Below, in pieces: positions 1-61,102 of a stretch of 64,000 nt of DNA. The notes below the pieces were generated by a model. The model was not told the origin of the DNA and searched no databases. It worked only from the letters and a program-made list of their open reading frames with translations. The translations under genes and the position numbers were made by a program. The stretch is from the NCBI GenBank assembly GCA_000092065.1, contig CP000585.1; one strand, given 5' to 3'. Every line of letters begins with the position of its first letter. Position 1 is the stretch's first letter. Origin of the DNA: Ostreococcus lucimarinus. Lineage: Eukaryota.

Positions 1-610
1 GACCGACGAGCGAGAGCGCCTCTTGTTGCTGCAACGGCACCTCTTGCTTGTCCTTTTGAGCGACGATGACTTGGAAATCCGTCAACACACTCTCGAGCTC
101 TTTCAATGCCTGCTCACCGTCCGCCTTCTTCCCCGACGCGAGAGCCTCAACGATCTTACCGCGTTGCTCCTTGACAATCTTCAAAGAGCCGTTCACGCTC
201 GATTCGACGCCGGAGAATTTCACTCCCGGCACGCGCAAGTCGTCGCTGATGCTCTCGAGCTTCTTCTGAATGGCGCGAATCGGCTTATTGCTCACCGGCA
301 ACGCGTTTCGCAACAGCGCCTTGGCGTTCGTGATGGGATTCGCTTCCAATCCAGCGACTTGGCCGATCTCCATCGGCGTCACCGGCGACGCGAACGCTTC
401 CAGAGTCGGCGCGGAGACGCACGCCGTCGCGGCGATCGCCATCAAACTCTTCGCGATCGATTTCGCCGCGCTCGGGGCGTCTTCGCCCGCAGCGTGCGCG
501 CGCACGACGGTCAACGCGCTTTGCTTGCGCGTGTTGACTGTTTTCGCGCGCAAAGCGCGCGCTGGGCGCGCGCACGCGCGTCCGATGGTGGGTGACGTCG
601 ACCCCGGCAT
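1..610 (-). CDS. CYP38: Thylakoid-lumen peptidyl-prolyl isomerase CYP38/TLP40-like, 5' part only; the gene continues beyond the window start
   Basis: The reverse-strand translation from the ATG near 610 begins with a Ser/Thr/Arg/Ala-rich transit-peptide-like N-terminus. It continues LLRNALPVSNKPIRAIQKKLESISDDLRVPGVKFSGVESSVNGSLKIVKEQRGKIVEALASGKKADGEQALKELESVLTDFQVIVAQKDKQEVPLQ, which is collinear with the Arabidopsis CYP38 N-terminal helical domain ([42 protein letters not shown]...). There is no stop before position 1. The ORF track does not list it because it is open-ended. Confidence 0.6.
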   Translation of the reverse strand, partial: MPGSTSPTIGRACARPARALRAKTVNTRKQSALTVVRAHAAGEDAPSAAKSIAKSLMAIAATACVSAPTLEAFASPVTPMEIGQVAGLEANPITNAKALLRNALPVSNKPIRAIQKKLESISDDLRVPGVKFSGVESSVNGSLKIVKEQRGKIVEALASGKKADGEQALKELESVLTDFQVIVAQKDKQEVPLQQQEALSLVG

Positions 611-1538
611 TTTGGATAAAGTCGTCCTTTACGAGCGTCCACCAACGCGCTGAGTCGCACGAACGCGCTCGGGCGCGACGAAAAGCGCGTCGAAGCGAGT
701 TTCCGTCTTCGGAGTCGTGCTGCGACGAGCGCGCGCGAATGTGCGGTCGCCCCGCGCGCGCGCCGCGGTTTTCGCAAACTATCGGCTACTCTAACGCTAC
801 AAACTCTAGACGCGCGCGTCGTCACCTGCGCCCGGCGGGCTCGCGATACGCCCTATTCGCGCGATACAACGCGTAGATTTCATCCCCTCCGATCGACGCG
901 TCCGTCGGGCGGCTGCCCAGTCCCGCGCGCGCGGGTCCGTCTGTCTCGCGCGCGTTCGCCGTCGGCGCCGCGCGCGTCGGCGCCGCCGCCGTCCCCGCCC
1001 GACCGCGTTCCGACGCCCGCGCGCGCTCATCGTGCTCCAACATCGATTTCGCCGACGCCGAGGCGTCGTATCCGCGCACGTCGCGATCGAACCGCTCGAG
1101 TCGACGCTCGACGTACGCTCGCGGCGGTTCCCGCGCCGCCCTCGTCGTCGTCGCCTCCACCGCGCGGTACAGCCCCGCGACGCCCGCGTTCGCGCGTCGC
1201 GCGCGCATCGCGAGCGTCCCGACCGCCGTTCCCGTCCCGCGCGTCTCGCGCGTCGTCGCGCGCGCGTCGAGATCGATCTCGTTCGCGTCGCCCGCGCCCG
1301 AGTCTCGCGCGTCGTCCCGCGCGCGCGCCCCGAGCGCCGCCGCGATGCGCTCGGCGCGCCTGCGCGCCTCCTCCACCATCGCGCTCGCGGGCGCGGGCTC
1401 CATCGCGCGCGGCGCGTCGCCGCGTCGCCGCGTCGTCGGCGCGCTGTGTCGACGCCGTGTCATTTCATGTCGCGCGCGTCGCGGCTCGTCTCGCTCGCCC
1501 CGCGCGCTCGCGTCGCGCGCCGACGCGCGACGCGCGCG

Positions 1539-2198
1539 ATGGCGGGACCGCCGACGCCCGCGCGACCGCTCGGGCGCGTCGCGCGCGGCGCGGCGACGGC
1601 GAGGGTGAAGATCGACGCGTGGTTGGACTTTGCGTGCCCGTTTTCGGGACGGTTTTGGAGAAACTGCACGGCGGCGTGGGCGAGTTACGACGGGAAAGCG
1701 GACGTCGCGATCGTCGTGTACAATCAACCGCAACCGTGGCACGCGCAGAGCGCGCTGGCGCACGAGGTGTCGTTGGGGGTGGAACGACTGCGCGGCGAGG
1801 ACGCGTTCGTCGCGTTTTGCGAGGCGGCGTTTAGCGAGAAAAACTGGGACAAGTTCACGGATAAGTTCACGGAAAAGATGACCAAGGGGGAGATGTACGA
1901 TTTGTACGTCGACGTCGCGCGCGAGGCGATGACGGGCGCGATGGGCGCGGACGCCGCGGCGTCGACGGCGGGCGAAGTGCGAAAACTTTTGGAATTGGAC
2001 GCCGAGGCGTTGGCGCGCGGGGAGAAGAATCCGGGCAACGCGATGACGCAGCAGTTGAAGTTTTACGTCAAACTCGGACGGCAAACGGGCGTGCACGTGT
2101 CGCCGAGCGCGTACGTGAACGGACTGTTCGCGGATACCTCGAGCGGGTGGAGCGAGAGCGAGTGGCACGCGTTTTTCGACGCCGCGCGTGGCAAGTGA
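1539..2198 (+). CDS. DSBA-like thioredoxin-fold protein
   Basis: The C-terminal 220 aa of track ORF 1032..2198 reads VKIDAWLDFACPFSGRFW... with a CPFS active-site-like motif and a DsbA-type fold. The upstream 170 aa are an arginine-rich GC artefact. The first plausible ATG is at 1539 (MAGPPTPARPLGRVARGAATARVKIDAW). Confidence 0.55.
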   Translation: MAGPPTPARPLGRVARGAATARVKIDAWLDFACPFSGRFWRNCTAAWASYDGKADVAIVVYNQPQPWHAQSALAHEVSLGVERLRGEDAFVAFCEAAFSEKNWDKFTDKFTEKMTKGEMYDLYVDVAREAMTGAMGADAAASTAGEVRKLLELDAEALARGEKNPGNAMTQQLKFYVKLGRQTGVHVSPSAYVNGLFADTSSGWSESEWHAFFDAARGK

Positions 2199-2281
2199 GC
2201 GCAGCGATCATCGCGCCGCAGCTTCTCGTCAGTCTTAGCGAATGCCTTTTAAACTCTAATTACAGACAAAGCGAGATAACA

Positions 2282-3025
2282 TCACGGATCCTCTGACTTT
2301 TCTTCGTTCGCCTCGGCGGCGTCGCGTTCGGCGAGCTCCGCCTTGGCCTGGTCGAGCAGATCCTTGCCGTCGAAATAATCCAGCGTCTTTTGTCCGGCGA
2401 GCGCGATCAATCCGACGCCGTTCGCCGCGTACACGAACGTGGCCAAGTACGTCAGCCCCTCGACGATCGTGCGCACGGTGATGGAAATTTGTCGCACCGT
2501 CTCGCTCTCCGGCAGCGCCTTCCCGTCGAACGACGCGCTCACCTTGGACGCGAACGCGTACAGCACGACAGAGATCCCGATCCCCGTCAAACCTCCGGTA
2601 AAACTCTGCATCGCCGTCAGCTCTTTCGTCTTCTTCGCGCGCTCTTCGTCGATTTTCGCTCGTTCCTCCTCCGGCAACCTATTCGCCACGCGAAACTCCC
2701 TCGCCTTCCCGCTTCGCTTCTGCACCGCGCGCGCAAAGTACCAGAACGAAAACCCCGTGAACAGGACGCCGAACACGTTCTGCAGCGGCGTCGCCTCTTC
2801 CGTGGGCACGCCGTACGAGTCGTACACCCCCGCGACGGCGACGCCGCCGTCGACCGCCGCGACCCACGCCGCCGCCGCCGCCGCGCGCGCCGTCGCCGTC
2901 GCCGTCGCCCGCCCTCGCGCGCGCGCGTCCGCGTCCGCGCGCGCGACGCCGTTTCTCGCGTCACCGTCCTCGTCCGCGCGCGTCGTCGTCGTCGTCGCCG
3001 TCGTCGCGCGCGTCGTCGTCCTCAT
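2282..3025 (-). CDS. Hypothetical membrane protein with about three TM helices, possibly organelle-targeted
   Basis: The C-terminal 247 aa of track ORF 2282..3949 run NVFGVLFTGFSFWYFARAVQKR...GLTGIGISVVLYAFASK...GLTYLATFVYAANGVGLIALAGQ. The N-terminus is Thr/Ala-rich. The upstream part of the ORF is an Arg-rich artefact. Confidence 0.5.
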   Translation of the reverse strand: MRTTTRATTATTTTTRADEDGDARNGVARADADARARGRATATATARAAAAAAWVAAVDGGVAVAGVYDSYGVPTEEATPLQNVFGVLFTGFSFWYFARAVQKRSGKAREFRVANRLPEEERAKIDEERAKKTKELTAMQSFTGGLTGIGISVVLYAFASKVSASFDGKALPESETVRQISITVRTIVEGLTYLATFVYAANGVGLIALAGQKTLDYFDGKDLLDQAKAELAERDAAEANEEKSEDP

Positions 3026-3214
3026 CTTTCGTTCGCCGTCGCCGCGCGTCGCCGTCCACCGTCGCGTCGCGCGCGCGCGTCGCGCCGCGGGCGCCGCGCG
3101 CGCGCGCGCGCGCGCGCCCGTCCGCGCCCGCATCGCCCCGTCTCGCGTTCGCGCGCGCGTGTGCGGCGCGCCCGCGCGGCGCCGCGTCACATCGAGTCGC
3201 GCCGTCGTCGATCG

Positions 3215-4240
3215 ATGTCGCGCGACGCCGACGCGCGCGGGCGCGCGGTGTACGTCGGGAACCTGCCGCTCGACGCGTCGTCGCGCGACGTCGACCGACG
3301 GTTCGCGGCGCACGGCGTCGTGGCGCGCGTCGAGGTCAAGCGACCGCGACATCCGCCGGCGTTCGCGTTCGTGACGTTCGACGACGCGCGCGACGCCGAG
3401 CGCGCGGCGCGGGCGGAGGACGGGACGACGTTCGATGGGAGACGCGTGCGCGCGGAGCTGGCGCGGGGACGACGGGACGGCGGGAGGGAGAGGGAGAGGG
3501 AGAGGGAGAGGGAGGCGCGCGGCGACTGGGACCGCGGCGACCGGGACGACGGCGACGGGCGCGATAGATACGCGGGACGGATGCGAAGCGATCGAGAGGG
3601 GCCGTACGATCGACCGCGATGGCGCGATGGCGCGGACGCGCGATCGATGGTGCGGGAGCGCGCGGCGACGCGAAAGACGGAGCATTCGGTGAAGGTGGAG
3701 GATTTGCCGCGAGGCGCGGATTGGCGAGACGTGAAGGACGCGTTTCGACGCGCGGGACGGGTGACGTACGCGAGCACGTTCGTCGATCGCGATGGACGGA
3801 GGTGCGCGGAGGTACACTTTGAGAGCGCGGACGACGTCGAACGAGCGATCGACGCGTTCGACGATAGGGAGTTTGAGATTTCCGGCGGCGCGCGCGAGTA
3901 CGTGCGGGTGTTTCGTCGAGCGCCGAGACGTCGTCGAGAGGGCGGGCATCGACCGCGGAGTTACTCGCGCGAGCGGTACTCCGATGACCGCGTCCGGCGC
4001 GCGCGAAGTCGCAGCCGTAGCTTCAGCCGTAGCTTCAGCCGGTCGCGCAGCCGCAGTCGCGACGAACGCGACGACGGCCCGTCGCGGAGCCCGTCGCCCG
4101 AAATCATCGAGCGACGCCGCTCGCGCAGCAGAACGCCGTCGCGGCGCGACGACGATTCGCCTCGGCGCGGGCGGTCGCCCACGCCGCGGGGCGCGCGATC
4201 GCGCGAGCCCTCATTCGACGACCTCGCGGCGAACGATTAA
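3215..4240 (+). CDS. Serine/arginine-rich splicing factor, SRSF1/ASF-SF2-like, with RRM, pseudo-RRM and RS domain
   Basis: MSRDADARGRAVYVGNLPLDASSRDVDRRFAAHGVVARVEVKRPRHPPAFAFVTFDDARDAERA is RRM1. SVKVEDLPRGADWRDVKDAFRRAGRVTYASTFVDRDGRRCAEVHFESADDVERAI is a pseudo-RRM carrying the SWQDLKD-type motif. The C-terminus is an RS domain (RSRSRSFSRSFSRSRSRSRDER...RSPSPE). Confidence 0.7.
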   Translation: MSRDADARGRAVYVGNLPLDASSRDVDRRFAAHGVVARVEVKRPRHPPAFAFVTFDDARDAERAARAEDGTTFDGRRVRAELARGRRDGGREREREREREARGDWDRGDRDDGDGRDRYAGRMRSDREGPYDRPRWRDGADARSMVRERAATRKTEHSVKVEDLPRGADWRDVKDAFRRAGRVTYASTFVDRDGRRCAEVHFESADDVERAIDAFDDREFEISGGAREYVRVFRRAPRRRREGGHRPRSYSRERYSDDRVRRARSRSRSFSRSFSRSRSRSRDERDDGPSRSPSPEIIERRRSRSRTPSRRDDDSPRRGRSPTPRGARSREPSFDDLAAND

Positions 4241-12693: not shown

Positions 12694-13950
12694 TTAGACG
12701 TTGACGGCGCCGCCCTTCTTGGAGCCGCTCGGGTCTTCACTGTACGCCTTCGCGCCGTGCATGGAGACGTCCAAGCCCATCCTGCGGTCGCCTTCGCGGG
12801 GGACGACATCCATGAACTTTTCGAGAACCTTGATGATGGCGTAGCCCATGACGAAGGAGTACGCGGCGCAGCCGACGGCGGCGAGCAGCTGCTTGCCGAA
12901 GAGCTTACCGCCAGCTTCGAAGGCATTCCCAGTCATGGCGGCGCTGGAGAAGATGCCGACGCAGAGGGTACCGAAGAAACCACCCATACCGTGCACGGCC
13001 CACACATCGAGCGCGTCGTCGAGGTTGTACTTCTTCGTGAGTTCGATGCACGCGTAGCACCACGGCACGCAGAGCGTACCGATGGTGAGCGCGGCCCACG
13101 GCTTGACGTACGCGGCGCACGGCGTGATGGTGGCCAAACCAGCGATAGCGCCGACGCAGGCGCCAACAAGGGTGGGCTTGCCTTCCATCTTCCACTCGAG
13201 CATGAGCCAGAAGAAGAGAGCGGCGGAGGCGGAGATTTCAGAGTTCATCGCGGCGAGCGCGGCCGACTCGTTCGCCGCAAGGGCGGAGCCGCCGTTGAAA
13301 CCGAACCAGCCGAACCAGAGAAGACCGGTGCCGAGGGCAACGAAAGGGATGTTGTGCGGGTTGGTGTCGACGTCGTCACCCTCGAGCTTTCGGCGGTTGG
13401 GCAGCGCCACGACGGTGGCCAAGGCGGAGAAGCCCGCGGTGATGTGCACGACGATGCCGCCGGCGAAATCCTTGACGCCGTTGCGAGCCATCCAGCCCCC
13501 GCCCCACACCCAGTGGGCGAACGGGAAGTACACCAAGTGCACCCAGAAGAAGATGAACAGGACGTACGGCACGAATCGCACGCGATCCGCGAACGCGCCC
13601 GTCATCAGGCTCGGCGCGATGACGGCGAACATGCCTTGGAATCCCGCGAACACGAGCCCCGGCATCCCCTCGGCGTACGGCAATTCTTGCGTCGCCAAGT
13701 TTTCCAGGAAGTAGTGCGTGCGCGCGCTGCCGATCACGCCGTTCTTCGACGTCCCGAAGCACAGCGAGTACCCCCAGACGGCCCAAACCAGCGTGATCAA
13801 TCCCATCGACACGTAATTTTGCATCATGATCGTCAGCACGTTGGACGATCGCACGAGACCGCCGTAGAAGAACGCCAGTCCCGGCGTCATGAGGTTCACG
13901 AGCGCCATGGAGACGATCATGAACGCGGTGGTGCCCGCATCGATGGCCAT
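12694..13950 (-). CDS. AMT: Ammonium transporter, Amt/MEP family
   Basis: The 418-aa ORF has 11 predicted TM helices and Amt signature blocks (GLAFFYGGLVR, FAGGIVVHITAGFSAL, MGGFFGTLCVGIF). An AT-rich region with TATATATTA lies about 100 bp upstream at 14044-14060. Confidence 0.85.
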   Translation of the reverse strand: MAIDAGTTAFMIVSMALVNLMTPGLAFFYGGLVRSSNVLTIMMQNYVSMGLITLVWAVWGYSLCFGTSKNGVIGSARTHYFLENLATQELPYAEGMPGLVFAGFQGMFAVIAPSLMTGAFADRVRFVPYVLFIFFWVHLVYFPFAHWVWGGGWMARNGVKDFAGGIVVHITAGFSALATVVALPNRRKLEGDDVDTNPHNIPFVALGTGLLWFGWFGFNGGSALAANESAALAAMNSEISASAALFFWLMLEWKMEGKPTLVGACVGAIAGLATITPCAAYVKPWAALTIGTLCVPWCYACIELTKKYNLDDALDVWAVHGMGGFFGTLCVGIFSSAAMTGNAFEAGGKLFGKQLLAAVGCAAYSFVMGYAIIKVLEKFMDVVPREGDRRMGLDVSMHGAKAYSEDPSGSKKGGAVNV

Positions 13951-14043
13951 CTTCGCTCGCTCGCGTGCGGCGCGCTGTTCTGCGGCGCTGTGCTGCGGCG
14001 CGCGCCGCCGCGTCGGCGCGAACCGCCGCGCGTCCGAACGAAA

Positions 14044-14060
14044 TCTATATCTATATATTA
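14044..14060 (-). promoter_or_regulatory. AT-rich TATA-like element (TATATCTATATATTA) upstream of the ammonium transporter gene
   Basis: It lies in the only strongly AT-rich stretch of the 13951-14220 intergenic region, about 100 bp upstream of the AMT start codon on the minus strand. Confidence 0.35.
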
Positions 14061-14820
14061 GAAGGCTTTAAATACGTATTTCTCTGTGAGTATGATTTAT
14101 CTTGCGTGTAGATACTGTATGTACAAACAGTGACACATTAGATACGACGCCCCGGGGGAACTTCGGCGAATTCAATCGACACCGCCGCGCGCGCGCCATC
14201 GAGCGACGCGGGCGGCGCGCATGTCGCGCGCGCGCGCGAGATGCGACGCGATGCCGTCGACGATCGCACCCCGCGCGCCCGCGCGCGCGTTCGCGTCCAA
14301 ACGCGCGCTGGACGCGATGCGAAAGCTGCGCGAACGATGCGACGACGGGCGTCGCGCGGTGCGCGACGCGCTCGCGGCGAGCGCGGACGCGCTCCGAGGG
14401 ACGCGCGCGAGCGCGAAGGAGACGGAGACGGCGATGGAGGCGTTCGTGAACGGGGCGAGGGAGGTGCTGACGCGATCGGGCGATCGGACGGGGGTGGGGA
14501 AGGAGAACGAGAGGTGCGACGCGGCGACGCGAGCGACGCGCCAACAGTTATCTCGCGAGACGCGAGGACGAGACGAGAGACGAACGGGACGGGCGCGATG
14601 GACGACGCGGGAGGGCGGTCGAGGGATGAAATCAATTGTGGTGACGCGTGGATCAGCGCGATCGGTGGTCAGAGCTCGAGGCGCGCGAGGGTGAAGACGA
14701 ATGGAAGACTGACGACGAAGACGCGCCGCGCGGCGCGCGACGGCGACGCGCAGCGCGAAAGCGACGACGACGACGCGCGGGAGCGCGAGGAAGAGCGGCG
14801 GCGCGCACGCCTCGAAAGGT

Positions 14821-16707
14821 GTGACGCCTGGTAAGGGGTTACGCGCGAGAGGGGGGGAGAATGTTGGGGATTCGAAGGGAGAGACGGCGAGGGCGAGGGC
14901 GACGGATGGCGCGACGGTTCCCCCCGAGGCGAGCGCGAGCGAGGCGAGCGAGGGACGAACGGTTGAGGTTAGCGGTGCGGGCGGCGAGGAAACGGGCGCG
15001 AACAAGTCTGAAAAAGATGGCGTGATGGCCGATGACACTGCGCGAGACGGTGGACATTCGACCGAGGCGTCTGGCGGCGCGCGCGTATCCGCGGCGCGCG
15101 CGTACGCCGACGTGCAGACGCCAAAGAACGTGAAGAAGATTGCGTGGCAAACCGCGGGGGCGTCGAACGAGCGCGTGACGAGAAAGAGTATGCGAAGTGC
15201 GACGCGGGGCGGTGCGCCGGTTTCGACGGTGAAGAACGTGAACGAAGATGCTGAGATGAAGGACGGCGCGGCGCCGCTCGACGACGCGCCGAAGAGCAAA
15301 TCTGTCGACGCCGCGAAGATTGAAGAGCAGCAGGATCCATCCTCGGCCGGGCAGTCGAGCGAAAAGCGGAAGCGCGCCAAAGCGCGAGCAAACGGTATGG
15401 CTTTTCTTAAGGCTGATATCCCCGCGCTCGCCGCACAGAATCCCAAAGCCGGCGGCGCGGTGGTTTCGACCGAGTTGAGAATTTCCCCCCGCACGCTCGC
15501 GATGGACAAGGCAAAGCAGAGTGCGTCGAAGGAACCCGCGGCGGCACCAGGGACGGCGACGATGACGTCTGAATCGAAAGAACCCGCATCAGCGCCCACA
15601 GTGGTGGCACCCGTCCTAGCGCCGCGCACCGTCGCTCCCAAGCATCCAGTCGATCAGCGCAGTTTGATGGAGTCGTTTATGATTCAGCCTGAGAATGTAT
15701 CGGCCGCGGTCGATCTCGCACCGTTGTCATCGTTCCAAAAAATGTCGGCGACGCCTTCTCAGGTGAAGGCTTTCCAATCTATGAGCTTGAACACGCCTTC
15801 TCACCAGGCAACTCTCGGCGAGCAATCCGCGCAACGTCCCAAACCGCCGTCTTCGCTGGCGCCGGTGACGACGGCGGCTGAGGCGAACGATGTCATGAGT
15901 CGACTCAAGCGCGCGATGGAGGCTCGATCACGCGCGGACGAAGAGAACAAGCGTCAATTAGAGAGTGCGCTTCGACAAAAGGAAGAAGAGCGCAAGCGAC
16001 GCGAGATGGAGATGCAGGCGCGAAAGGCCAAGCAAGCTGATCAGGAAGCGCGCGAGCGAGAAGAACGACGCCTGCGTCAAGAGCGTTTGGCTCAGTTTCG
16101 ACTTCAAGAAGAAGAGGCGCAACGAAAGGCGGCGATGGAGAAGAGTAAGTGGGCAAAGATGCTTGAGGAACAAAAGAAGGCGACGTTTGACGTGTCGACG
16201 AAGCCAATGCCAGTGTCGTTGAAACGCACGAGCGGTCAATCTGGTTTCACGTCTTCCGCTTCTCACGAAGCAGAAAAGCGTCGCCGACTGCTCGAGAACG
16301 CGCAAGCGGCAATTCATGGCCATTCCCATCAATCTTCGGCCGCCATGCGCACACCCACTCGCTCCATCTTCAGGACCAATTTTGCTTCGTCTTCGTCGCA
16401 GCAGCAACGCACGCCGTTGGATTCGTATCCGATTTCACCCTATTGCAGCAGCGACAGCGAAGACGATGAGCGACCGAAAAAAATGATCCCGGGATGGGCT
16501 CGTGGCGACGCCCTCGTTCCCCAGTTGAAAGCGCAGTCTTATGTGGACCCGGATGACATCTTCCCGAACCCCAGCCTCACGTGCAGCCTCGGCAAAATCT
16601 TCAAAAAGTCTAGCCACGACCGCCGACGTAGCAGTAGCAACTGGGCGCACGACAGGTTAACGCTCCAAGAGGAGTTAAGTTACAAGCAAAAGATGGGATT
16701 TCGCTAA
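14821..16707 (+). CDS. INCENP: Inner centromere protein (INCENP)-like, with SAH coiled-coil and C-terminal IN-box; the 5' end is uncertain
   Basis: The C-terminus IPGWARGDALVPQLKAQSYVDPDDIFPNPSLTCSLGKIFKKSS...RRRSSSNWAHDRLTLQEELSYKQKMGF matches the Aurora-B-binding IN-box (IP.WA.G..L..A...Q...dp..IFg....c.LeeIF....R.SSa.W). It is preceded by an ER/K-rich single alpha helix. The track ORF begins at a GTG and has no in-frame ATG for about 200 nt. See the finding proposing an upstream exon at 14221..14513. Confidence 0.6.
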   Translation: MTPGKGLRARGGENVGDSKGETARARATDGATVPPEASASEASEGRTVEVSGAGGEETGANKSEKDGVMADDTARDGGHSTEASGGARVSAARAYADVQTPKNVKKIAWQTAGASNERVTRKSMRSATRGGAPVSTVKNVNEDAEMKDGAAPLDDAPKSKSVDAAKIEEQQDPSSAGQSSEKRKRAKARANGMAFLKADIPALAAQNPKAGGAVVSTELRISPRTLAMDKAKQSASKEPAAAPGTATMTSESKEPASAPTVVAPVLAPRTVAPKHPVDQRSLMESFMIQPENVSAAVDLAPLSSFQKMSATPSQVKAFQSMSLNTPSHQATLGEQSAQRPKPPSSLAPVTTAAEANDVMSRLKRAMEARSRADEENKRQLESALRQKEEERKRREMEMQARKAKQADQEAREREERRLRQERLAQFRLQEEEAQRKAAMEKSKWAKMLEEQKKATFDVSTKPMPVSLKRTSGQSGFTSSASHEAEKRRRLLENAQAAIHGHSHQSSAAMRTPTRSIFRTNFASSSSQQQRTPLDSYPISPYCSSDSEDDERPKKMIPGWARGDALVPQLKAQSYVDPDDIFPNPSLTCSLGKIFKKSSHDRRRSSSNWAHDRLTLQEELSYKQKMGFR

Positions 16708-16781: not shown

Positions 16782-18590
16782 CTATGTCTTGACGGGATGG
16801 CCGTTTTCATCCAAACCTTCGACGCGCGGAAAGAGAGCGAGCTTTTCAACCTTAGTTCCCGGCTTCAATCCGCCCCATTTCGTTCGTTGTGCGATCGATC
16901 CCTCACCAAGGCCGACTCCAGCGTCGAATTCCGCCATCTTGTTGGGCATCAAAGGCTCCAACAACACCGCGGCGATGCGAAGCGCTTCGAGGCACTGGTA
17001 CAAACAAGCCGCCAATTCGGCGCTCTTTGACTCGTCCTTAGCCATGCGGAAAGGCTCGGTTTCCGTGATGAATAAATCGACATCCATGACGATGTTTTTC
17101 GCCGCCGCTGCGGCGCGAGGAAGGTCCAACTTGTCGTACGCCGTCAACGCGTCTTGAACGTGCGCGCTCGTGCGCGCCGGCCAGTCCCAGTTATCGAACG
17201 TCACCCGCGCACCGTTCGCCTCTTCGCTTCGCACTTCGCCGTCGAAGTACTTGTTAATCATCGCGGTCGTACGACTGACGCTGTTACCCATGGTATTCAC
17301 TAGATCGCTCGAATAGATTTCTTGAACGCGTTCGGCGCTAAAGTTGGCGTCTTGCGCGCCGATCGGTCCTTCGACGGCGAGATAGTATCGCATCGCATCC
17401 AAACCGTAATGCTCCTTGAATCGATCCATGCAAGCCAAATCAACGAAGTTACCTAGTGATTTCGACATCTTGCGTCCCTCGCGAATCCAGAAAGCGTGCG
17501 CGTGCACGCGCTGAGGAAGCGGCAAATCGAGCGCCATGAGGAGCGCGGGCCAAATCACCGAGTGAAACCAAGAAATTTCCTTGGCCATGATGTGCATGCT
17601 CGCGGGCCAGTACTTGGATCGATCGGCGTAAACGATGGAATCCTTACCATCGCCAAGACCGATAGCGGTGATGTAATTCATCAACGCGTCGATCCACACG
17701 TAAATGACGTGCTTTTCGTCATCCGGCATCGGGATGCCCCACTTGAAGTTGGTACGCGAAATCGGCACGTCGTTCAACCCTTCATTCAATCGACCGATCA
17801 TCTCGTTACGCCTCGCGCTGGGCGTCAAAAAATCTGGGTTATCAGCGTGCAGCGCCTCGAGCTCCTTCTGGAACTTGCTCAATCGAAAGTAATAATTTTC
17901 CTCGCTCGAGCGAACCATATCCTTTCCGCTAATCGGGCTCTTGTAATCGAGCTCCTTCGCCTTGGATTCGGTGTAATACTCCTCTTGTCCTTCGTCGTAC
18001 CACCCCTCAAAGCGACCCAAGTACACCGCATCCTTCTCCTGCAGCACCTTCACCAACGCCCGCACTTGTCTCTCGTGATAATCATCCGTCGTGCGAATAA
18101 ACTCGTCGAAGGAAATATCGTACGCCGTCATGACGTCGCGAAACTTTTGACTATTCTCATCCGCCAACGCCTGCGGTTCGATCCCTCGCTTCTCCGCGCT
18201 TTGCTCCACCTTCAATCCGTGTTCATCCGTGCCCGTGAGAAAGAACACGTCCTCCCCACGCGCCCTTCGATACCTCGCGTACGCGTCCGCCACCGTCGAC
18301 GTGTACACGTGCCCGATGTGCGGCTGATCGTTCACGTAATATATCGGCGTCGTCACGAACGTCGGCCCTTCGCTCGCGCGCGCCGCGACCGCGCATCCCC
18401 GTCCGCGCGTCGTCGCTCGCGTCGTCGCCGCGCGCGCGACGCATCCGCGCGTCGCCGTCGCCGTCGCCGCCGTCGCCGTCGTCGTCACCGCCGTCGTCCG
18501 CGTTCGTCCCGCGACCGTCGTCGCGCGTCGCGCGCGCGCCGTCCGTCGCGACAGCATCATCACCCGCGACGTCGCGGACGCGAGCGCCAT
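16782..18590 (-). CDS. MARS: Methionyl-tRNA synthetase, organellar type
   Basis: [28 protein letters not shown] carries the class-I HIGH motif. [11 protein letters not shown] carries KMSKS. A Ser/Thr/Arg-rich presequence ([26 protein letters not shown]) starts at the first plausible ATG, 18590, inside track ORF 16782..19049. Confidence 0.8.
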
Positions 18591-18771
18591 CGCGCGCCGT
18601 CTCGCGCGTCGACGCGTGGCGCCGGCGTCGACGCCGCGCGCGCGTCCGACCGCGCGAGATTTCGCCGCGCGAGGGCGAACGCTGGTTTCGCCACTCGAGG
18701 GCGAAAAGACGGATTCGGATTCGAACGCGCGTCGCGACGGGCGCGACCGGCGCACGTCGACGCGCGCCGCG

Positions 18772-20046
18772 ATGGCGCCCGGACGGGCGAAGAAGCGCGC
18801 GACGCCGGACGAGGGCGTGAACTTCGCGCTGAAACGCCTGCGCGACGGGCGCGATGGACGCGAGGGCTCGCTCGATGAGGTGCTCGCAAAGGTGCGGGCG
18901 CTCGAGCGCGCGGTGAAGGCGAAGCGAGGCGGACGGCGGACGCTGGACGATCTCGGATTGGCGACGACGTATCGCGAGGTCGAGGACAGGGACGCGAGGG
19001 AGATCGCGGCGGCGATCGAGCAGGTGATGATCGCGGCGGCGAAGAGCATCGTGGCGGGCGACGGGTTCGAATACGTGCTGCCGAGTCGAGGGGCGACGGA
19101 TCAGGTGTACGTGGAGGCGCTCGATCGAATCGTGCTGAAGAATAAGACGACGAAAGCGAATTTTGCGGCGGTGTCGAGCGTGCGGAAGGTGACGATTCTG
19201 ACGCGGGTGATGCAGTTGGTGCACGGGGTGCTGAGTCGCGGGATTCACGTCACGAAGCGGGATTTGTTTTACACCGACGTCAAGTTGTTCAAGGATCAGA
19301 AGGATTCCGACGCGGTGTTGGACGATATTTCGTGCATGCTCGGATGCACGCGTAACTCGCTGCACGTCGTGGCGTCGGAAAAGGGCGTCGTCGTCGGACG
19401 GTTGCAATACAAGGAGGACGGCGACGAAATCGACTGCACGAAGATGGGAGTGGGCGGTAAGGCGATTCCGAGCAACATCGATAAAGTGAGGGATATGCGC
19501 ACCGACGCCAAGTTCGTACTGCTCGTCGAGAAAGATGCGGCGTTCATGCGCCTCGCCGAGGACCGATTTTACAACAAGTACCCGTGCATAATCATAACCG
19601 CCAAAGGACAACCCGACGTCGCGACGCGCTTGTTCTTGAGCAAGGTGAAGAGAGATTTGAAAATCCCGGTGTTAGCGCTGGTTGACGCCGATCCGTACGG
19701 GTTGAAAATCATCTCAGTGTACATGCAAGGTTCGAAGAACATGGCTTTCGATAGCGGAAACCTCACCACGCCCGATATCAAATGGCTCGGCGTCCGCCCG
19801 AGCGATTTGGACAAGTTCAAAATCCCCGAACAGTGTCGCCTAGAGATGACGGCAAAGGATATTGAAACGGGGCATCACATGCTCAACGAGGATTTCATTA
19901 AAAGCAACCCGGAGTGGGTGAAGGAAATCAACATCATGCTCGAAACGAAAACCAAGGCGGAAATTCAGTCGTTGAGTAGCTACGGCTTTCAATACCTGAG
20001 CGAGGTGTACTTGCCTTTGAAGCTGTTAGAAGGGGACTGGATTTAG
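18772..20046 (+). CDS. TOP6A: DNA topoisomerase VI subunit A (TOP6A/SPO11-3 type)
   Basis: From [15 protein letters not shown] onward the protein is collinear with Arabidopsis TOP6A over its whole length. Examples are [94 protein letters not shown] and [26 protein letters not shown]. The similarity to TOP6A is greater than to meiotic SPO11-1/2. The gene is divergent from MetRS, with about 180 bp between the ATGs. Confidence 0.85.
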
Positions 20047-24718: not shown

Positions 24719-25650
24719 ATGACCGCGCTCGAAGAAATCTCCACCGACGAGCTCATGCGCGAGATTCAGCGGCGGCTGGAGTGCCAAAATAAGCCAGACA
24801 AGCGCTTGATCCTCATCGGTCCGCCGGGATGCGGCAAGGTGCGCGTTTTCGACCGTCAACTTCGACCGTCAAAACCTCAAAAAGCGCGCTTCGGGACACC
24901 CGACTGACGACGCGTCTCGACGCCGAACAGGGAACGCAATCGCCTAAGATTAAATCCGACCACTGCCTGTGCCACCTCGCGACGGGGGACATGTTACGCG
25001 CGGCGGTGGCGGCGAAAACGCCGAACGGCGTGAAGGCCAAGCAAGCCATGGAGAGCGGAGCGCTCGTGAGCGACGATATCGTGGTCGGGTGCGTGTGGAG
25101 CGTTGCGATGGCGCGTTCGAGCGCGAGTGATGATACACGAGGCCCTACGCTGTGTTCTTGTGTCCTGCGCGGTGACTGACAGAGATGCTTCACTTGTGAA
25201 TGTAGGATTATCGAGGAAGCCGTCAAGGCGCCCGAGTGCCGAAACGGTTTCATTTTGGACGGGTTCCCGAGAACGGTGCCGCAAGCGGTGAAGTTGGACG
25301 AGATGCTCTCTGCGAAAGGGGTATCGATCGATGCAGTGCTGAACTTTGAAGTGCCGGATGAGGTACTCGTAGAAAGGGTGGAGGGACGATGGATCCACCC
25401 CGCGAGCGGGCGATCGTACCACACGAAGTTTGCTCCGCCGAAGGTTGAAGGGAAGGATGATTTCACGGGAGAACCTTTAATTAAGCGTAAGGATGACAAC
25501 GCGGAGACCCTTAAGTCACGCTTGCAAGCGTTTCACACGCAAACGCAACCGGTTATCGATTACTACGCGATAGCAAAGAAGGTTACTGAAATTCACGCCA
25601 ACAAACCAGCCAGCGATGTCGAAGCGCAAATTGCAGCGGCGTTGAAGTAG
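24719..25650 (+). CDS. ADK: Adenylate kinase, three exons: join(24719..24838, 24931..25088, 25206..25650)
   Basis: Exon 1 encodes [40 protein letters not shown] (P-loop). Exon 2 encodes [53 protein letters not shown]. Exon 3 encodes [34 protein letters not shown]...[61 protein letters not shown]... The three are collinear with plant ADK1. The introns are 92 and 117 bp, phase 0 and phase 2. The donors are GTGCGC and GTGCGT. The acceptors are CAG and TAG. CTGAC branch motifs lie 25-30 nt upstream of the AG. The spliced length of 723 nt gives 240 aa. Confidence 0.8.
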
Positions 25651-46198: not shown

Positions 46199-46488
46199 CT
46201 AGAAATCAACCTCCGGTTGTTGCGTCGGCAAAAGTGAAAACCGCTTCTTCAGCGCGACTCGTTGCTTCGAAAACTTATCATCCGGCGAAAATCTCGCCGG
46301 GTGCGCCGATTGCGTCGGCGTTCCATCCGGGGCGGTTTTCTGCGTCGCGAAATCCGGCGCGTCAGTCGCGCGTCCGTAGGGTTGCGTCGCCTCGCGCGCG
46401 CGTCGCGAATTCGCCTCGCGCGTCGTCGCCCGCGCTCGCGCACCTTGAGCGTGTACACCCGCTCGCCCTTCTCGTTCATGTAATACAT
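46199..46488 (-). CDS. NOP10: H/ACA ribonucleoprotein complex subunit NOP10, two exons: join(complement 46444..46488, complement 46199..46339)
   Basis: This gene is not in the ORF track. Reverse-strand exon 1 encodes [15 protein letters not shown] and ends at a GTGCGC donor. The 104-bp intron 46340..46443 carries GACTGAC 20 nt before the acceptor CAG. Exon 2 encodes [46 protein letters not shown] and ends at a stop. The 61-aa product matches NOP10 from end to end (plant MYLMYYINEKGDKVYTLKK...[34 protein letters not shown]). Confidence 0.75.
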
Positions 46489-49290: not shown

Positions 49291-49699
49291 ATCGATCCCA
49301 CGACCCTGCGTCGCCCCATCTCCTCGCTGCTTCGTCCCGTTCGCCCCATCGGCCGCGCGTCAGTCTCCATCGCCTCCCCGTCGCGCGTCTCGCCTCTCTT
49401 CGCGCATCGCGTCGCCATCCGCGTCGCGATCCTCGTCGGCGTGGATGGTGTTACGCATCCATCGATTCGCGTCGCGTCGCGTCGCGTCGCGCCGCCGCGC
49501 CGCCGCGCCGTCGTCGCTCGCACCTGGTGCGTCTCGCCCACGCGCTCGTACCCCGCGGTCCAGTTCTTGAGCGCGTCCATCGTCGTCGCGCTGTGCCGCG
49601 CGTCGTCACTCCATCGCGCGCGCGTCGTCGCGCCTCCATGCTCGCGCCGCTCGCGCGCGTCGCGCGTCGCGCGAGGACGACGGCCGAGGACGCGTCGTC

Positions 49700-57305: not shown

Positions 57306-57571
57306 CGTCGTCGTCCGCGACGTCGTCGGCGCGCTCTTACCTCTCGCGTCCTTTCCCTGTTCGAGCGCGCGTCGTCGTCAGTCTCGTTCGCGCGCGTCTC
57401 GATCGCGACGTCGCCGCGTTTCGCATCGTTCGTTCGTCCACCGCCGTCGTCGCGGCGTCGCGCGCGCGCGCACCTCGTCCATCGCGACCTCTTCGTCGTC
57501 GCCGCGCCTCGGCGCGTCGCGCGCGTCCATCGCGTCCGTCGCGCGTCGAGGTGTCGACCGAAGTCGCGCGT

Positions 57572-60514: not shown

Positions 60515-61102
60515 GATGCTCGCGCGCACGACCGCACCGACTCGCACGACCGCCACGCTGCGCAGGTGCGCGCGAAGCGCGACGCGAATCGCGGCGCGGC
60601 GCGACCGCGCGCGCGACCGGAGACCGAGGACGCGCGACCGGAGACCGAGGACGCGAGGACGAGGGAATCGTCGCGCGAGGCGCGGCGAGGCGAGCGATCG
60701 CGCGCGCGAACGGACGAGAGGACTGACGAGACGCGATGGTGACGAATGAATAGCCGCGTGGCGAAGCAAACGCGCACGGCGAAGCGCGGCGCGCGCGTCG
60801 CGGCGCGCGCGTTCGATGACGTGAACGTCGTGATCTCGTCGGCGAACGCGATTTGCCTGGCGTTGGGACGATTCGTGTTTTTGCCGTACCAACGCGCGCA
60901 AGTCGAACGCGTGGGCGCGCCGACGCAAAACGGACAGACGCACTTCGCGGCGGGCGACTCGCGCGCGGAGGAGGCGTCCTTCATCGTGTCGACGAACGAT
61001 CCGGCTGGGTTCACGATCGTGGACCTGCTCGCGTGGGGGTCCATCGGGCACGCCGTCGGATTTCTCGCGCTCGCGTCCCAGTCGGCGCAAACGATGTTGT
61101 GA
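60515..61102 (+). CDS. PSAG: Photosystem I reaction centre subunit PSI-G (PsaG/PsaK family), two exons: join(60515..60564, 60754..61102)
   Basis: Track ORF 60746..61102 encodes [71 protein letters not shown]. This matches Arabidopsis PsaG ([71 protein letters not shown]). Upstream exon 60515..60564 (MLARTTAPTRTTATLR) ends in AG followed by a GTGCGC donor. The 189-bp intron has GACTGAC 25 nt before the TAG acceptor at 60751-60753. The phase-2 join gives a 132-aa precursor with a typical transit peptide. A TATTTAAG TATA box lies at 60417-60424. Confidence 0.65.

Follow-up and report, generated by a model that had tools for sequence, protein, structure and literature searches.

Where does the gene for the inner centromere protein (INCENP) begin in the picoeukaryote Ostreococcus lucimarinus? 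In the stretch of DNA analyzed here (contig CP000585.1 of assembly GCA_000092065.1, 64,000 nucleotides (nt), hereafter the window), the open reading frame (ORF) that carries the INCENP-type IN-box is called with a GTG start at 14821. A sequence-only reading of the window had proposed that this call misses an upstream exon at 14221..14513, which would be joined to the INCENP body across an intron. Our analysis supports a two-exon INCENP orthologue with this first exon, which begins ~600 nt upstream of the GTG, and an intron of 240 nt, to which we assign a probability of about 0.88. The exon, its donor, branch site and acceptor, and the phase-2 join are all backed by comparative evidence from O. 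tauri, from other Ostreococcus lineages, from pairwise comparison with the locus L007 and from published splice signals.

The ATG at 14221 opens frame 1, which closes, as previously read, at a TGA (14692-14694). A second in-frame TGA (14710-14712) lies inside a GACTGAC motif, and from 14713 the frame of this ATG is open again until the TAA at 16705-16707. The splice signals were found where they had been placed. The donor GTGCGA starts at 14514 directly after ...GAGAG, the acceptor CAG occupies 14751-14753, and GACTGAC(G), which had been put about 40 nt before the acceptor, spans 14707-14714, with 41 nt from its branch A to the acceptor G. Joining 14513 to 14754 in phase 2 keeps the frame and reads ...GKENE/SAKATTTTRGSARKSGGAHASKGVTPGKG (slashes denote splice sites throughout), identical to the junction peptide proposed before. 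Two further donors were considered and rejected: a GTGCG at 14359 would join out of frame, and a GGTAAG at 14832-14837 falls within the conserved coding block TPGKGL. In DNA of 76% G+C, an open frame of 97 codons has a chance expectation of ~20%, as estimated from the local base composition. It is thus unremarkable alone, and the case for the exon rests on comparative data and not on the ORF.

The GTG at 14821 is indeed the start in the gene track, being the sole start codon in the downstream ORF that a bacterial-style ORF caller can use, and the same position is the start of database calls, P0001 and P0021 among them. It is not a real start, however; it appears as one because a caller of bacterial type met a eukaryotic gene with in-frame stops in its intron. 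The first in-frame ATG of the GTG-initiated ORF, at 15025, is residue 69 and not residue 68 as had been counted. Nearly all lineages conserve the peptide TPGKGLRARGGEN (14824-14862), which precedes this ATG, and translation must therefore begin further upstream.

To place the gene among its relatives, we searched the protein collection with the spliced protein and obtained 14 homologues, all 14 of which contain the Pfam IN-box. One 90% cluster holds the O. tauri protein 'Inner centromere protein, ARK-binding domain' (CEF97832.1 / XP_022838911.1, 737 amino acids (aa)); P0002, the representative of this cluster, shows 64% identity to the window protein over 86% of the query. In O. tauri, the gene (CAID01000005.2; L001 3001-5447) is flanked by an ammonium transporter (Amt, minus strand), a methionyl-tRNA synthetase (MetRS, minus) and Spo11/TopoVIA (plus), and the window order Amt(-), INCENP(+), MetRS(-), Spo11(+) equals the order on O. 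tauri chromosome 5. Judging from neighborhood and colinear protein, which both match, the window gene is the orthologue of O. tauri INCENP.

Fitting CEF97832.1 onto its 2447-nt gene yields exactly one intron (L001:3267-3499; 233 nt, phase 2). Its borders read ggtgagag/GTGCGGAGCG ... GACGACTGACGG ... GCACGCAG/cgaacgg, and those of the window intron, also in phase 2, read acgagag/GTGCGACGCG ... GAAGACTGACGACG ... GACGCGCAG/cgcgaaag. The shared pattern is gagag/GTGCGG ... ACTGAC ... CGCAG/cg in O. tauri versus gagag/GTGCGA ... GACTGAC ... CGCAG/cg in the window. Homology extends to the start regions (MAPARAREGQVMPRA for O. tauri versus MSRARARCDAMPST for the window), and the annotated O. tauri start MAPARAREGQVMP matches MSRARARCDAMPS of the window as a homologous, ATG-initiated start. 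RNA-seq guided the second version of the O. tauri annotation, which was also curated manually; 89% of its introns were validated by RNA-seq, a figure for the whole annotation and not for the INCENP intron singly (PMC4378021).

Beside the window and the O. tauri locus, seven further lineages or strains served for comparison. Eight loci from at least six lineages were interpretable, namely the window, L007, L001, L002, L011, L003, L010 and L009. In 8/8 loci, exon 1 begins with an ATG, measures 266-314 nt and ends in phase 2, and all eight show a branch-like ACTGAC, ACTAAC or ATTGAC 25-45 nt before a YAG acceptor. The donor reads G/GTGCG throughout with the exception of L009, where it is GTACGT, as it is in the P0118-P0124 group; beyond the window, the homologous donors are GTGCGT, GTGCGG or GTACGT. 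Intron lengths are, in the order of loci given above, 240, 232, 233, 120, 120, 180, 222 and 314 nt, which leaves remainders of 0, 1, 2, 0, 0, 0, 0 and 2 after division by three. In L007, L001 and L009 the exon frames can consequently be joined only through removal of the intron. A ninth locus, L005, has donor and acceptor as elsewhere but needs a frameshift in an exon 1 run of 13 G (2270..2292), which may be a homopolymer assembly error or a real frameshift. A long G run also occurs in L006 (~145..165), at the position matching the run of L005.

The pattern of substitutions separates coding from non-coding sequence. Between the window and L007, divergence in exon 1 is 8.5% and its indels measure 6 and 9 nt; in exon 2 it is 3.3%, with a single indel of 3 nt. 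The intron diverges by 19% with indels of 1, 7, 1 and 1 nt, such that indels in multiples of three are confined to the exons. The G+C content by codon position is 0.69/0.63/0.90 in exon 1 and 0.56/0.46/0.87 in the neighboring Amt gene; the peak at the third position (GC3) is absent from the intron when it is read in the frame of exon 1, and GC3 periodicity ends at the donor. Moreover, L007 carries Ala at residue 11, where the window has a second Met, which identifies Met1 (14221) as the conserved initiator. Eight contigs from Tara and ENA were nearly identical to the window and are uninformative about selection; two Logan runs also contain the exact window ORF, and marine metagenomes, Tara among them, commonly include near-identical copies.

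These data bear directly on two other ways of reading the locus. If INCENP were translated from exon 2 only, beginning at ATG 15025, the segment 14221-14513 would be an untranslated leader with or without an intron in the 5' untranslated region (UTR). Such an arrangement would agree with the lack of any in-frame ATG between 14713 and 15025 and with the quick divergence of exon 1, which is without a homologue outside the genus. We nevertheless consider it very improbable: at the protein level, nearly all lineages conserve the block VTPGKGLRARGGEN, which precedes 15025, exon 1 belongs to the translated sequence in the curated O. tauri model, and the ATG, open frame and phase of exon 1 recur at every interpretable locus, together with its high GC3 and its indels in multiples of three. 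It is hardly credible, in turn, that ORF 14221..14694 constitutes a small gene of its own (157 aa) and that INCENP starts independently downstream, for example at the non-ATG codon GTG 14821. For many metagenomic contigs, bacterial-style callers do return precisely this pair of ORFs (for example P0115 and P0001/P0021). Conservation of the upstream ORF, however, stops at 14513, where the diverged and frameshifted intron sequence begins and GC3 periodicity is lost; its tail varies in length and frame between lineages, every lineage examined retains donor, branch site and acceptor at this place, and non-ATG initiation is not the norm in eukaryotic nuclear genes.

The intron could also be real but often retained. 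In the window, this would give a truncated product of 157 aa with the N-terminal helix only, and in lineages whose intron is a stop-free multiple of three it would give an isoform with an in-frame insertion, which adds to the two-exon model and does not replace it. Introns of this kind are found in L002 (2815..2934, 120 nt), L011 (2740..2859, 120 nt) and L003 (965..1144, 180 nt). ORF callers thus translate through them, as seen in P0006, P0005 and P0011, which show E-R-C-V (equivalent to AG/GTGCGT) and which, together with their clusters, contain 40-60 intron-derived residues. Other public calls (P0001, P0021 and P0013) are truncated at the internal GTG. Since open frames are expected by chance at ~70% G+C and the segments encoded by the introns are poorly conserved, we regard frequent retention as improbable.

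The two-exon gene also fits what has been described for introns of this species. Among O. lucimarinus introns outside chromosome 2 that are confirmed by expressed sequence tags, the donor consensus is GTGCGTG, and ACTGAC occurs in 87% and GACTGACG in 66.5% of the non-chromosome-2 introns (Irimia and Roy 2008, PMC2483917). The window intron resembles this class in its exact GACTGACG branch motif, its GTGCG donor, its AG acceptor and the AG that ends the preceding exon, and its length falls within the 120-314 nt of the homologous introns in other Ostreococcus loci. Further candidate introns of the form AG/GTGCG ... GACTGAC ... YAG, 92-197 nt in length and most of them joining long open frames, were seen elsewhere in the window (Table 1). 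A tally of intron-like patterns with a loose regular expression gave fewer matches than shuffled sequence and was not used as statistics.

Several observations weigh against the two-exon gene. The window donor GTGCGAC departs from the consensus GTGCGTG in having AC and not TG at positions +6/+7. Exact-match searches of the metagenome and metatranscriptome contigs of the Joint Genome Institute (JGI) did not recover the spliced junction of the window or that of L010, for which a NAGNAG acceptor was allowed. No junction-spanning protein was present in the protein collection, queried with the full-length protein and with the aligned spliced N-termini; its matches are genomic ORF calls only, consisting either of exon 1 with intron read-through or of exon 2 alone. 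Because the INCENP transcript is likely of low abundance and regulated with the cell cycle, these junction negatives carry little weight. In addition, the stop-free introns in three lineages may give rise to read-through proteins there. Exon 1 also evolves fast, with 10 non-synonymous and 8 synonymous codon changes relative to L007; outside its helical core it appears to be under only moderate constraint. Finally, exon 1 was not linked to known INCENP N-termini: it gave no match to Pfam INCENP_N at E <= 10, a profile search of the PDB returned no INCENP chain, and hhalign against a hand-entered sequence of human INCENP residues 1-70 yielded a probability of 0.1%. The exon-1 profile, searched against 1.84 billion representatives, found 9 matches, all Ostreococcus-like. 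Of the orthologues that had been proposed for comparison, those within Ostreococcus have a homologous exon 1; this search returned no INCENP from Micromonas or Bathycoccus.

Taken together, we propose the following course of expression. Transcription would probably start in or just after an AT-rich island (14040-14150) upstream of the gene, and translation would start at ATG 14221, with exon 1 ending at 14513. We infer that in this strain the 240-nt intron, of U2 type and of the standard Ostreococcus class (AG/GTGCG ... GACTGACG ... CAG), is removed, whereupon exon 2 (14754-16707) would continue in phase 2 to give a protein of 748 aa, the putative scaffold for the chromosomal passenger complex (CPC). 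From its N- to its C-terminus, this protein would consist of a helix (residues 21-89), a long, low-complexity and probably disordered middle, a Glu/Arg/Lys-rich helix, and the IN-box with a TSS-like motif, which at the C-terminus should bind and activate Aurora kinase. The features are collected in Table 1.

Table 1 Features of the INCENP locus and candidate introns elsewhere in the window.
Feature	Position	Strand	Details
AT-rich island	14040..14150	none	~42% G+C versus 63% G+C in the window; between the divergent Amt gene (12694..13950, minus) and INCENP
INCENP exon 1, coding part	14221..14513	+	293 nt, phase 2; 97 residues and two bases of codon 98
Region coding for predicted long alpha-helix	14281..14487	+	residues 21-89; conserved core S/T-x-R-A-x-D-A-x-R-x-L-R
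Spliceosomal intron (probable)	14514..14753	+	240 nt; donor GTGCGAC 14514-14520, branch GACTGACG 14707-14714, acceptor CAG 14751-14753; in-frame stops 14692-14694 and 14710-14712
INCENP exon 2	14754..16707	+	ends with TAA 16705-16707; continuous ORF, colinear with CEF97832.1 and 13 other homologues; with exon 1 gives 748 aa
GTG of the bacterial-style ORF call	14821..14823	+	internal Val codon of exon 2, in conserved block GVTPGKGL
Glu/Arg/Lys-rich stretch	15889..16182	+	residues 477-574; read from the translation; highly conserved among 14 homologues
IN-box, Aurora-kinase-binding region	16450..16602	+	residues 664-714; core IPGWARGD 16486-16509
TSS-like motif RRRSSSNW	16621..16644	+	residues 721-728, just after the IN-box; aligns with human KRTSSAVW (phmmer)
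Candidate introns	60566..60753, 25089..25205, 24839..24930	plus	AG/GTGCG ... GACTGAC ... YAG
Candidate introns	57473..57357, 49523..49327, 46443..46340	minus	AG/GTGCG ... GACTGAC ... YAG

With the first exon at hand, we asked what its peptide might do. The helical character that had been noted for it agrees with AlphaFold2, which predicts a single long helix over residues 21-89 from an alignment of 13 sequences, with an overall mean predicted local distance difference test (pLDDT) of 75 and 10-residue block means of 96, 95 and 87 over residues 31-60. The helical core is conserved across lineages (alignments A1 and A2). A Foldseek search with the helix model returned 0 matches. Known INCENPs pack their N-terminus into a bundle of three helices together with Borealin and Survivin, and orthologues of BORI, a protein of Survivin type, have been reported in Chlorophyta. 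By its position and predicted long helix, the exon-1 segment would most likely be the part that bundles with Borealin and the Survivin/BORI orthologues, and the earlier suggestion of a Borealin/Survivin-binding role is a reasonable one. An alternative arises because exon 1 was undetectable outside Ostreococcus in the search of 1.84 billion proteins: its helix could be a genus-specific N-terminal module rather than a diverged CEN-box, which we consider unlikely. If it were true, the smallest free-living eukaryote would anchor its CPC through a scaffold interface that was either replaced or evolved extremely fast. In a variant of this idea, the stop-free introns of the three lineages may permit retention isoforms in which an additional segment separates the helix from the remainder of INCENP.

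In most lineages, the residues directly ahead of the exon 1 donor form a (G)KEN(D/E) motif; it is seen in the window (14497..14511) and also in L007, L002, L011, L010 and L009. The same position holds DEN in O. tauri and KEN, AEN, EEN or EEK in the P0118-P0124 group. The motif could be a degron of the KEN-box type or merely a conserved exon end.

In the C-terminal part of the protein, the IN-box matches Pfam PF03941 with E = 1.2e-12 and 48 bits against a cut-off of 22, and phmmer aligns it with residues 820-898 of human INCENP (PDB 9si3_N, 4af3_D and 6gr8_B), including IPxWARG and the TSS motif. By analogy to known INCENP, RRRSSSNW would be a candidate for phosphorylation by Aurora. The Glu/Arg/Lys-rich stretch appears to sit at the place of the single-alpha-helix or coiled-coil domain of INCENP. 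A search with the IN-box region (99 aa) directed at other Mamiellales scored 2 candidates and returned one 124-aa fragment. In IMG/VR, the sole hit of the IN-box query was L022 (IMGVR_UViG_3300023184_005927; 2425..3546), a match that we rejected as a chance FKKSSHDR similarity unrelated to INCENP; it falls in an ORF of decarboxylase-like appearance, judged without a family scan, on a 460-kb contig of this viral collection.

Around the gene, the composition of the AT-rich island and its place between two divergent genes suggest that it is probably a shared promoter or 5' UTR region. The arrangement of Amt(-) and INCENP(+) around it recurs in O. tauri and in metagenomic loci. The island contains a mini-ORF of five codons, ATG TAC AAA CAG TGA (14119..14133), in the frame of the INCENP start, which would be relevant only if transcription starts upstream of 14119. 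In L009, a unit of ~100 nt (...CATCACTCTCCATTCTCGGACATTTCACACGTACTCGC...) occurs three times in tandem between Amt and INCENP exon 1 (1500..1790), and an ORF caller translated these copies into the N-terminus of P0113. On the other side, the MetRS ORF (16782..19049, minus) encodes 755 aa, with an Ala/Arg/Ser/Thr-rich stretch of ~230 residues before the conserved core, and MetRS calls in other lineages comprise 488-651 aa. The length of the ORF may reflect a targeting peptide, over-extension, or another missed intron or start.

In its significance, this result is a gene-model correction: it matches an annotated O. tauri gene with standard intron signals, is already known in kind and brings no new biology. 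Its main effect is on annotation quality. When callers of bacterial style are run on picoeukaryote DNA, this INCENP is cut short at an internal GTG, and in sister lineages the intron is translated through; public collections already contain such truncated or read-through proteins (P0001, P0005, P0006, P0011 and their clusters). With the 748-aa model, the protein regains its N-terminal helix, the element that would be expected to keep the CPC together, and studies of Ostreococcus mitosis should use this version.

Compared with its closest described counterpart, INCENP of O. tauri, the window gene has the same neighbors, two exons, the same intron position and phase, and like splice signals, and it shares the start motif (M-x-x-AR-AR...MP), the IN-box and the C-terminal half. 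The two differ in that overall protein identity is only ~64%, that exon 1 encodes 88 residues in O. tauri versus 97 in the window and is weakly alike, that the intron measures 233 nt versus 240 nt, and that the KEN motif of the window is DEN in O. tauri. With INCENP of animals and its fungal counterpart Sli15, the protein has in common the C-terminal IN-box with its W-A-R-G core, followed by a motif of TSS type. Further points of likeness to animal and fungal INCENP would be the putative charged helix that precedes the IN-box and, at the N-terminus, the predicted helix with the long, probably disordered stretch behind it. It is shorter than human INCENP (748 aa versus 918 aa) and, unlike the animal and fungal proteins, its N-terminal helix has no detectable similarity to CEN-box / INCENP_N. 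By analogy, Arabidopsis INCENP/WYRD (AT5G55820) and the plant CPC with BORR and BORI1/2 would be the expected context in the green lineage, where INCENP scaffolds Aurora via its IN-box and Borealin/BORI via its N-terminal helix.

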